Source of the DNA: a virus
Taxonomy: Duplodnaviria; Heunggongvirae; Uroviricota; Caudoviricetes
Strand: one strand, 5' to 3'
DNA: 33,040 nt
Virus record (IMG/VR): IMGVR_UViG_2671180631_000013
Shown here: positions 15,001 to 18,000 of the stretch, one piece after another
Layout of the letters: each line of letters opens with the position of its first letter
How positions within the stretch are numbered: position 1 is the stretch's first letter
Position numbers: made by a program

Positions 15001-18000
15001 NNNNNNNNNNNNNNNNNNNNNNNNNNNNNNNNNNNNNNNNNNNNNNNNNNNNNNNNNNNNNNNNNNNNNNNNNNNNNNNNNNNNNNNNNNNNNNNNNNNN
15101 NNNNNNNNNNNNNNNNNNNNNNNNNNNNNNNNNNNNNNNNNNNNNNNNNNNNNNNNNNNNNNNNNNNNNNNNNNNNNNNNNNNNNNNNNNNNNNNNNNNN
15201 NNNNNNNNNNNNNNNNNNNNNNNNNNNNNNNNNNNNNNTTAAGTCACTGACCGGAACAGATAAACCTGTCCGTGGGCAGAAACCGATAAATCCTGATAAA
15301 TATCCATGAACGCAAAAATCAGATACGGCCTGTCGGCTGCCGTTCTGGCACTGATTGCCGTCGGTGCGCCCGCGCCTGATATTCTCGACCAGTTTCTGGA
15401 TGAAAAAGAAGGTAACCACACAACGGCATACCGCGATGGGTCCGGCATCTGGACCATCTGTCGGGGTGCCACGATGGTGGATGGAAAACCCGTTTTTCCC
15501 GGTATGAAACTGTCGAAGGAAAAATGCGACCAGGTCAACGCCATTGAGCGTGATAAGGCGCTGGCATGGGTGGAGCGCAATATTAAAGTACCACTGACCG
15601 AGCCACAAAAAGCGGGTATCGCGTCATTTTGTCCCTATAACATTGGCCCCGGTAAGTGTTTTCCGTCGACGTTTTATAAGCGGCTGAATGCTGGTGATCG
15701 TAAAGGTGCATGCGAGGCGATTCGCTGGTGGATAAAAGATGGTGGGCGCGATTGCCGCATACGTTCAAATAACTGCTATGGACAGGTTATTCGTCGTGAC
15801 CAGGAAAGCGCATTAGCCTGTTGGGGGATAGATCAGTGAGCAGAGTCGCCGCGATTATTTATGCTCTGGTTATCTGCATCATCGTCTGCCTGTCGTGGGC
15901 GGTCAATCATTACCGTGATAACGCCATCGCCTACAAAGAACAGCGTGATAAAAAAGTCAGTGAGCTGAAGCAGGCGACCGCCACCATTACTGACATGCAG
16001 CAACGCCAGCGTGCTGCTGATGTACTCGATGCTAAATACACGAAGGAGTTGGCTGATGCGAAAGCTGAAAATGATGCTCTTCGGCGCAAGCTTGATAATG
16101 GTGGTCGGGTGCTCGTCAAAGGAAAATGCTCTGTGCCATCCTCAGCCGAAACCTCCAGCGCCTCCGGCATGGGCAATGATGCCACCGTCGAACTCTCTCC
16201 AGTTGCTGGACGAAACGTTCTCGGTATCCGGGACGGAATCATCAGAGACCAGACAGCACTGAGAACGCTTCAGGAATATATCAGGACGCAATGCCTTCGA
16301 TGATAGCGATAATTTTACTCATCATCCTTCACATTTGGCTCTGTAGACAGGGTGGTGATCACTTCTGGAGTGAATCCAGATTAAACATCTCATTGCTGAT
16401 GCTTGAAGTTGAGCATCTGGCGCGCGGTAAGGGGCTGCGTTGAAATAAGAGCCAGTCATTAAAAATACCTGGATTTAGCCTCGCATTCGCGGGGCTTTTT
16501 ATTGCCATTACAAAAGCCACTCCCTACAGAGTGGCTTTGATAATGGCTTATACCCTACACGGGATAACTTAACTGATATCCCTTTTAACGGATAAAGGTA
16601 TTCAAGCCTGACACATCATGCGCTGTATCGTCGCCGTATTCCCGTATTAACAGAGACCGTAGCCCGACGGGGAACTCCTTCTGCGAGAGTGTGCGGGAAT
16701 AATCAAAAACGATGCACACCGGGTTTTTACCGCGTTTATGGTTCGCGGGTTTGTCCCTCATGCTCGCCAGTCCTGTGCGGGGGTGGAAGAAACAGGATAC
16801 TCACACAGATTCTTGTGGGCACGATGCTATTCCTTTCTGGATTATCCCGATGCCATTCATGCAAGGCGCTGTATCAGACGTTCGTCATGTCTGTCAGGCT
16901 GACGGGTCCTCCCGGTGGAGTGGCCTGCCACGGGGCGGGAGCGTCGCGGAAAAAGGCTAGTTTTTGAAATTTCATTCGTCATCACCACCACTGTAATAGA
17001 TTGATATTACAGTGGTTTTGTTTTTATGGTGTCGATTTTGATTGTTTTTTGTTCATCACTAACACCGTTTGCCTAAAGTTGTTCGCGAGATGCATGTTTA
17101 AAACATTCTGGAGCGGGTATGGATCGAGAGTTAAAAAATCTGACGCTGAATATCAGTCAACTGGCGGCACTGTCAGGTGTACATCGCCAGACTGCTGCGG
17201 CAAGGCTGCAAAATCTACCCGTTGCAGGGGGGCATGAAAGCAACCTCAAGCTTTATCGGGTGGTTGATATTGTGTCGGCATTTCTGGCATTGCCACCGCC
17301 GGTTGCAGAAGGCGAAATGGACGCGCATGAGCGCAAAGCCTGGTATCAGTCTGAACGTGAGCGTCTTAAGTTCGAACAGGAAACGGCACAACTCATTCCG
17401 GCCAGTGATGTCAGACGGGAGTTTGCCATCTGGGCAAAAGCGGTCGTGCAGGTGCTGGAGACATTACCGGATATTCTGGAACGTGACTGCGGTCTGCAGC
17501 CTGCCGCTGTGAGCCGTGTTCAGTCCATTATTGATGATCTGCGCGATCAGATAGCCCTGCGGGTGACTGAAGCAGGTGCGGATGATGAGGAGGAATTACA
17601 GCAGGAGGAGTAATGCTGAATCAGGAAACCGCAAAGGCAGCACGAACCGATTCAGGTTATATCCTTCGCGCACCGAGACGAATGCGGGTTGCTGATGCCG
17701 TTGCTCAGTATATGCGGGTGCCCATGGGGGCAGGGAACTCAGTCCCGTGGGATCCGCTGGTGGCACCGTATGTTATTGAGCCGATGAACTGCCTGGCCTC
17801 GCGTGAATACGACGCAGTGATATTTGTTGGCCCGGCACGAACCGGCAAGACTATCGGCCTGATTGACGGCTGGGTGATTTACAACGTGATTTGCGATCCT
17901 GCTGATATGCTGATCATTCAGATGACGGAGGAAAAAGCCCGCGAACACTCCAAAAAACGACTCGCCAGAACGTTTCGCGTCAGCCCGGAAGTGGTCAGTC

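Follow-up and report, generated by a model that had tools for sequence, protein, structure and literature searches.

A perfect palindrome upstream of the terminase genes of an mEp460-type prophage is probably the IHF (I1) segment of a lambda-type cosB

The stretch of DNA analysed here (IMG/VR record IMGVR_UViG_2671180631_000013, 33,040 nucleotides, hereafter the window) represents a lambdoid, mEp460-type prophage. Shortly before its terminase genes it carries a perfect inverted repeat followed by a run of T, and this element raises the question of which process it serves: termination of transcription, binding of a LexA-like protein, or DNA packaging, all of which had been suggested in an earlier, sequence-only reading. 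According to the present analysis, the palindrome is probably the central part of cosB, i.e. the I1 segment, the site for integration host factor (IHF), of a lambda-type cos. The observations behind this assignment are the sequence anatomy of the region, its conservation pattern and the genome-end positions in records of related phages.

The arms of the palindrome, as given by a repeat finder, read ACCACTGTAATA (16987-16998) and TATTACAGTGGT (17005-17016); they are 12 nt long, 100% complementary, separated by the 6-nt spacer GATTGA and followed by TTTGTTTTTA. The sequence reported before for 16988-17026 is correct, as are the 14 nt separating CTGT and ACAG and the location just upstream of the terminase operon, whereas the arms, a strong palindrome indeed, had been counted as 11 bp, and the half-site is CTGTAA, not CTGTAT. 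RNA folding of 16975-17035 yields -21.7 kcal/mol (z = -4.9 against shuffles). No other perfect hairpin-type inverted repeat with arms of at least 12 bp is present in the window, where this one is also the longest. Of 60 first-order Markov simulations of the window, 3 produced a repeat of this kind: the palindrome is unusual, though not overwhelmingly so when taken by itself. The Rfam scan returned no match in the palindrome region.

The palindrome is situated 55-84 bp to the right of a lambda-type cosN. With cos bp 1 set at window position 16933, the two arms occupy cos bp 55-66 and 73-84, on either side of the spacer (67-72), and the T-run covers 84-93. The window aligns from 16902 to 16950 with the right-end/left-end junction of lambda, including CCGGTG after cosQ, and the distance from cosQ to the predicted nick is 22 bp in this alignment, compared with 23 bp in lambda. 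The predicted 12-nt 5' cohesive end GGGCGGGAGCGT (16933-16944) has CG on each side; ACG/GGGCGGGAGCGT/CGCGG in the window corresponds to ACG/GGGCGGCGACCT/CGCGG in lambda, with 8 of the 12 end bases equal and identical flanks. Records of phages cdtI and Tritos open exactly with GGGCGGGAGCGTCGCGG, i.e. at cos bp 1, and their first 33 bp (GGGCGGGAGCGTCGCGGAAAAAGGCTAGTTTTT) are identical to the window. The record of phage LLS opens at the same aligned base and is annotated there as "5'extended single-strand cohesive site", that of Hafnia phage yong2 opens at cos bp 13, and that of mEp460_4F5 (LR595868.1, L001) 5 bp left of the predicted nick. These record starts, from phages of the same terminase type, lend independent support to the predicted nick positions.

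Lambda offers the template for what lies to the right of cosN. Its I2 is a static bend of poly-dA tracts (PMC4856287), R3 covers bp 50-65 with contacts at bp 55-63 (PMC9026076), and I1, an IHF site with intrinsic bend, is located at bp 65-90 between R3 and the inverted R2 (PMC4856287); the order R3-I1-R2-R1 has been described for lambda, 21, phi80 and Gifsy-1 (PMC9026076). In the window, an A/T-tract segment occupies the I2 position and may, by analogy, have an I2-like function. The best three-way repeat consists of TCATCACCA (R3, bp 47-55), TCGACACCA (reverse complement of R2) and TCATCACTA (R1), to which the small terminase subunit TerS is predicted to bind, and the palindrome with its T-run occupies exactly the interval between R3 and R2. 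Equivalent R3/R2/R1 triples, at equal distances from cosN, occur in nearly all of 81 non-redundant loci that share the terminase type and derive from Escherichia, Citrobacter, Klebsiella, Rahnella, Proteus and others.

The central 13 bp of the palindrome (TAATAGATTGATA) match the IHF consensus perfectly. In 49 of the 81 non-redundant relatives, from many genera, this strand carries an IHF-consensus match (at most one mismatch) whose start falls at cos bp 59-64, against a chance expectation of 0.006 per locus; the best IHF-consensus matches of lambda are likewise found on this strand, within I1. On the consensus strand the T-run is an A-tract, AAAAACAAAA (17025-17016), 9 bp 5' of WATCAA. A dA+dT element at such a position is typical of strong IHF sites, e.g. 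attP H', where, as is well established, the A-tract lies about 8-9 bp 5' of a core of the same type, WATCAANNNNTTR. Unlike attP H', the site in the window is a predicted one, and its context is packaging, not site-specific recombination. From its sequence, 16994-17006 would be a segment at which IHF binds and bends the DNA.

The order of elements is cosQ, cosN with predicted nicks around 16933-16944, A/T segment, R3, palindrome plus T-run (16987-17025), inverted R2, R1 and the terminase genes (Table 1). By analogy with lambda I1, host IHF would bind the centre of the palindrome and fold the DNA back on itself, with the T-run as the flanking A/T tract of the IHF site. In the folded DNA, R3 and the inverted R2 would face each other, ready for a dimer of TerS, and the dimer would anchor the large subunit, whereupon cosN would be nicked and packaging would start. 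The earlier suggestion of a cosB element is supported, not in the form of a TerS site with altered dimer geometry, but as the IHF (I1) segment between R3 and R2.

Table 1. Coordinates of the proposed cos elements and of the terminase genes in the window
Feature	Position	Strand	Remarks
cosQ-like heptamer GGGTCCT	16904-16910	+	Same heptamer as in lambda, at the corresponding position
cosN (predicted)	16931-16946	+	Alignment to lambda; genome starts of relatives
A/T-tract segment AAAAAGGCTAGTTTTTGAAATTTCA	16950-16974	+	Lambda I2 position; aligns with lambda bp 18-42
R3-like TerS repeat TCATCACCA(CCA)	16979-16990	+	cos bp 47-58; end overlaps left arm of palindrome
Palindrome	16987-17016		12-bp arms, 6-bp spacer; cos bp 55-84
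IHF consensus core, proposed I1	16994-17006	-	TATCAATCTATTA = WATCAANNNNTTR, 0 mismatches
T-run TTTTGTTTTT	17016-17025	+	Invariant except G/A at 17020 (cos bp 88)
R2-like TerS repeat, inverted	17027-17035	-	Reverse complement TCGACACCA; cos bp 95-103
R1-like TerS repeat TCATCACTA	17053-17061	+	cos bp 121-129
Small terminase subunit TerS, DUF1441 / phrog_141	17119-17613	+	Pfam, phrog
Large terminase, lambda gpA type	17613-19715	+	Domain match; ATPase and endonuclease domains

A scan of viral contigs provided 80 loci that encode the TerS protein of the window with 100% identity, 78 of them alignable. Among these 78, cosQ, described as a highly conserved 7-bp site in the N15 literature (PMC4669245), is near-invariant, the A/T segment is nearly so, and cos positions 97-104 in the R2 region are invariant. 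Inside the palindrome and T-run, cos bp 59-60, 62-65 (TAAT), 78 and 84-93 do not vary, with the exception of G/A at bp 88, and bp 68-76 (ATTGATATT) are near-invariant, while bp 57, 58, 61, 66, 67, 77, 79, 80, 82, 83 and 94-96 are polymorphic. Every specified IHF consensus position is invariant; the two most polymorphic sites, bp 66 (A, T and G at near-equal frequency) and bp 67 (four alleles), correspond to N2 and N3 of that consensus (16998 and 16999, 3-4 alleles). The hairpin "loop" is the most conserved part of the element and the "stem" the least. In the 49 distinct alleles, 90.6% of stem positions form standard pairs, compared with 89.8% after shuffling; only three double changes were found, and compensatory stem changes are essentially absent among these alleles. 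Hairpin energies range from -16.2 kcal/mol for the window allele, the best of all, to -0.4 kcal/mol; the palindrome is perfect in 9 of the 80 loci, and the consensus pairs at 10 of 12 positions. Such a conserved loop with an uncompensated stem fits a protein-binding site with free flanks, not a selected RNA hairpin.

These data bear directly on the earlier remark that the element may simply be a terminator. The pattern does fit: the sequence passes a terminator scan (12 pairs, 6-nt loop, TTTGTTTTTA), the window allele folds with the energy and z-score given above, and hairpin and U-run follow one another on the strand of late transcription, as in Rho-independent terminators. Unlike in these, the stem is AU-rich, with 4 G-C pairs of 12. 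Termination as the main function is opposed by the variable, uncompensated stem and by the spread of allele energies, and no comparable hairpin with T-run occurs at this place in other lineages with a DUF1441 terminase. Furthermore, the site is situated inside the late operon, in the gap between lysis and terminase genes, rather than at the end of a transcription unit, the upstream open reading frame (ORF; 16712-16960) lacks conservation of its frame, and a stronger terminator-like site is already available at 16477-16496. A Rho-independent terminator that stops transcripts unmodified by Q before the head genes, alone or in addition to a cosB role, is thus unlikely on the comparative evidence.

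The site at 16477-16496 (+), the strongest of its kind in the region, has an 8-bp stem with 6 G-C pairs followed by TTTTATTGCC, and comes after the lysis genes and a 50-aa ORF (16291-16443, phrog_11822). The 82-aa ORF 16712-16960 (+; phrog_17397, a hypothetical protein in the mEp460 annotation) spans cosQ and cosN. It was considered as a gene terminated by the hairpin and rejected, since relatives that share the cos have anything between 13 and 137 open codons in this frame; it is probably no gene.

The symmetry of the arms could alternatively reflect a pair of TerS dimer sites, R3 and an inverted R3. The left arm (bp 55-66) lies where lambda R3 is contacted (bp 55-63, PMC9026076) and overlaps the end of the R3-like repeat. 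The right arm, however, has no counterpart in other lineages, although R3, R2 and R1 are kept there; the arm positions vary freely among prophages with identical TerS, and the arm centres, 18 bp apart, flank an IHF core whose footprint would cover both, all of which makes this arrangement very unlikely. In relatives outside the mEp460-type lineage, no inverted repeat longer than 9 bp was found in bp 45-100, and none has this dyad around its IHF core; CP-1639 retains a left-arm-like CACCAGTGTAAG as the tail of R3, without a right arm. The two-fold symmetry of the flanks, confined to the mEp460-type lineage, is probably incidental to the I1 segment, arising on one side from the R3 tail and on the other probably from a fast-changing spacer that mirrors it by chance. 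That the symmetry is itself recognised is unlikely.

An operator with expanded spacing, for host LexA or for the prophage-encoded LexA-domain protein (9056-9382), had been proposed on account of CTGT and ACAG in the arms. Both motifs are present, and the 108-aa protein does possess a LexA DNA-binding domain (Pfam E = 2e-19; phrog_362). The spacing, however, is CTGT-N14-ACAG instead of N8, and the supposed half-site bases G61, A79 and G80 (cos coordinates) vary among prophages. A search of the window for further half-sites at equal spacing, proposed together with the operator, yielded no second copy even with 3 mismatches; half-site matches at 2 mismatches are scattered without pattern, and the dyad exists at one site. 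The distribution of the gene points in the same direction. The gene, part of the dam / lexA-like / rusA module, recurs with at least 94% identity in about 50 records of phages that have no palindrome and whose packaging genes are unrelated (SfV, SfII, SfIV, Stx2a phages, cdtI, PhiR40_1). The LexA-domain gene is found in 61 phage records and the palindrome in 7, all with mEp460-type TerS. The occurrence of the palindrome tracks TerS; the site follows the terminase and not the regulator, and a LexA-type operator is extremely improbable. True CTGT-N8-ACAG matches occur only twice in the window, at 6138-6153 and 13653-13668, the second of them right where the gene for the late DNA methylase (13643-14695) begins.

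High polymorphism in the flanks of the IHF core (window 16987-17028, cos bp 55-96) deserves separate consideration. Of a 65-bp segment, the 80 loci (L004-L083) contain 48 versions. For a 43-bp segment, four versions with differences at up to 7 positions occur among ten loci whose 637 bp of flanking sequence are identical. Nucleotide diversity (pi) is at least 0.15 at 13 of 43 segment positions, compared with 5 of 164 third-codon positions of TerS, a coding baseline that is lowered by the choice of loci with identical TerS protein. The VT1-Sakai-type lineage displays the same two hot flanks beside the IHF core, with R3, R2 and R1 fixed; in lambda-type cos, flank polymorphism is weaker and more scattered. 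A mutational hotspot specific to the palindrome was rejected, as the cosQ-cosN spacer is equally polymorphic and the coding baseline is biased downwards. Covariation between bp 58 and bp 95 is not separable from haplotype linkage. The simpler reading of the high polymorphism is that the positions are unconstrained, which leaves the identical-flank result unexplained; it might stem from exchange of short patches among prophages of one host cell or from template switching at the quasi-palindrome.

Taken further, the flanks of the IHF core might form a fast-turnover cassette, of which the perfect palindrome is one transient state that perhaps also acts as a Q-sensitive terminator. Exchange or mutation in the flanks would then far outpace that in the neighbouring DNA. 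Diversifying pressure may be involved, e.g. from satellites or other resident prophages in competition for one terminase; alternatively, the turnover could be driven by template switching within the quasi-palindrome. The four versions within identical flanks, together with the hot flanks of a second lineage, leave room for such a cassette, which nonetheless appears quite unlikely. If it were true, the Q-sensitive terminator state may insulate the head genes in the lysogen.

Several findings weigh against the assignment to cosB, or at least qualify it. The IHF consensus by itself is not rare, with 3 matches in the window versus 1.4 expected, so the argument rests on position and conservation. 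The register of R3 is ambiguous through a CACCACCAC repeat, bp 50-58 being possible as well. An 8-bp inverted-repeat core, ACTGTAAT / ATTACAGT, shows fair conservation in the lineage, more than the IHF consensus demands, and there may be an extra constraint on the symmetry of the palindrome. TerS itself belongs to DUF1441 and not to the Nu1 family; its hhalign alignment with lambda Nu1 is collinear but not significant (probability 6.6%), and searches against PDB (phmmer and profile) found no solved relative. Searches for a helix-turn-helix gave weak matches, the single-sequence AlphaFold model is poor in the N-terminal part, and R-site binding through a winged helix is an assumption for DUF1441 TerS.

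The late genes are arranged in the order Q, DNA methylase, holin, endolysin, Rz, an 800-bp gap, DUF1441 small terminase, gpA-type large terminase, W and a lambda-type portal. The large terminase possesses the domains GpA_ATPase and GpA_nuclease (E = 4e-72 and 1e-85, respectively), and the TerS start codon is found at cos bp 187, compared with 191 in lambda. PhiR40_1 (L086), compared with window 16965-17330, has a mosaic joint: cosN and the C-terminal 95 TerS residues are common to both, the C-terminal half of TerS being identical to that of the window, while cosB and the first 70 TerS residues have been replaced together. Such a joint swap is as expected of a specificity module; judging from these sequences, the DNA-binding part of TerS appears to be exchanged as one unit with cosB.

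Compared with lambda cosB, the window has the same order of cosQ, cosN, A/T segment, R3, IHF site, inverted R2, R1 and terminase genes, with an IHF consensus that occupies the same strand and precedes a T-rich tract. In contrast to lambda, TerS belongs to DUF1441 and has no significant similarity to Nu1, the R repeats are of the TCRWCAYC type, and R3 and I1 are about 5-15 bp nearer to cosN. The IHF core is perfect, whereas lambda I1 has 1-2 core mismatches, and it lies within a 12-bp inverted repeat without a lambda counterpart at this position; lambda has an inverted repeat with T-run of its own, made by R2 and R1. The DUF1441-terminase phages cdtI, LLS, mEp043, VT1-Sakai, CP-1639, Fels-1 and Gifsy-2 share with the window the cosN type, the terminase pair and the layout of R3, IHF-like core, inverted R2 and R1. 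Unlike the window, none of these seven possesses a long palindrome; their distance from cosB to the start codon is 129-235 bp, and the R sequences differ along with the N-terminal part of TerS. Gifsy-1 was considered as a further member and dismissed: its TerS is a Nu1/gp1 homologue, and the published statement on its R3-I1-R2-R1 order is not directly transferable.

Further variation was observed at the ends and to the left of cosQ. At the last base of the predicted cohesive end, 16944 (cos bp 12), 64 loci have T and 14 have G; variation at bp 7 and 11 is rare. Mixed infections or recombinants could therefore produce cohesive ends that do not match, a situation described for N15 and lambda (PMC4669245). 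The linear record of mEp460_4F5 lacks 3 bp within the cohesive end in bp 1-20 (GGGAGCGCGG versus GGGAGCGTCGCGG), which looks like an assembly artefact at the physical ends. An 8-bp unit, CAGGCTGT, directly left of cosQ varies in copy number. A Fur-box-like GATGATAATCATTATC is located directly left of cosQ in lambda and many relatives (L085, the lambda right end, and L088, L089, L091 and L092); the sequence at this place in the window is unrelated to it.

Elsewhere in the window, Rfam detected isrK (64 bits) and C4 antisense RNA (82 bits) above the gathering score at 6395-6471 and 6496-6583 (+), an antirepressor-control RNA pair of the P1/P7 type. The small RNA sRNA-17, an ArcA-regulated RNA of E. 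coli K1 from mEp460-type prophages (PMC7719688), was considered as a transcript ending at the hairpin and discarded, since it maps to about 3936-3996. The exact match from there onward (+), in the early region of the prophage, comprises the 5' part of sRNA-17.

At least 80% of the stretch from Rz to the terminase genes is carried by about 770 complete E. coli genomes, and for this very common type of E. coli prophage a position can now be given for cos, along with specific bases for mutation. For annotation, the locus is a warning that a hairpin with T-run upstream of the terminase genes of a lambdoid prophage can be a packaging signal instead of a terminator or operator, and ORFs called across the cos hairpin region are probably spurious. 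Our literature search found no published dissection of cosB for phages with a DUF1441-type small terminase. The R3/IHF/R2/R1 layout appears to hold for this TerS family, which has no detectable similarity to Nu1, and in extending beyond the Nu1 family it supports the generality of the lambda model of packaging initiation.

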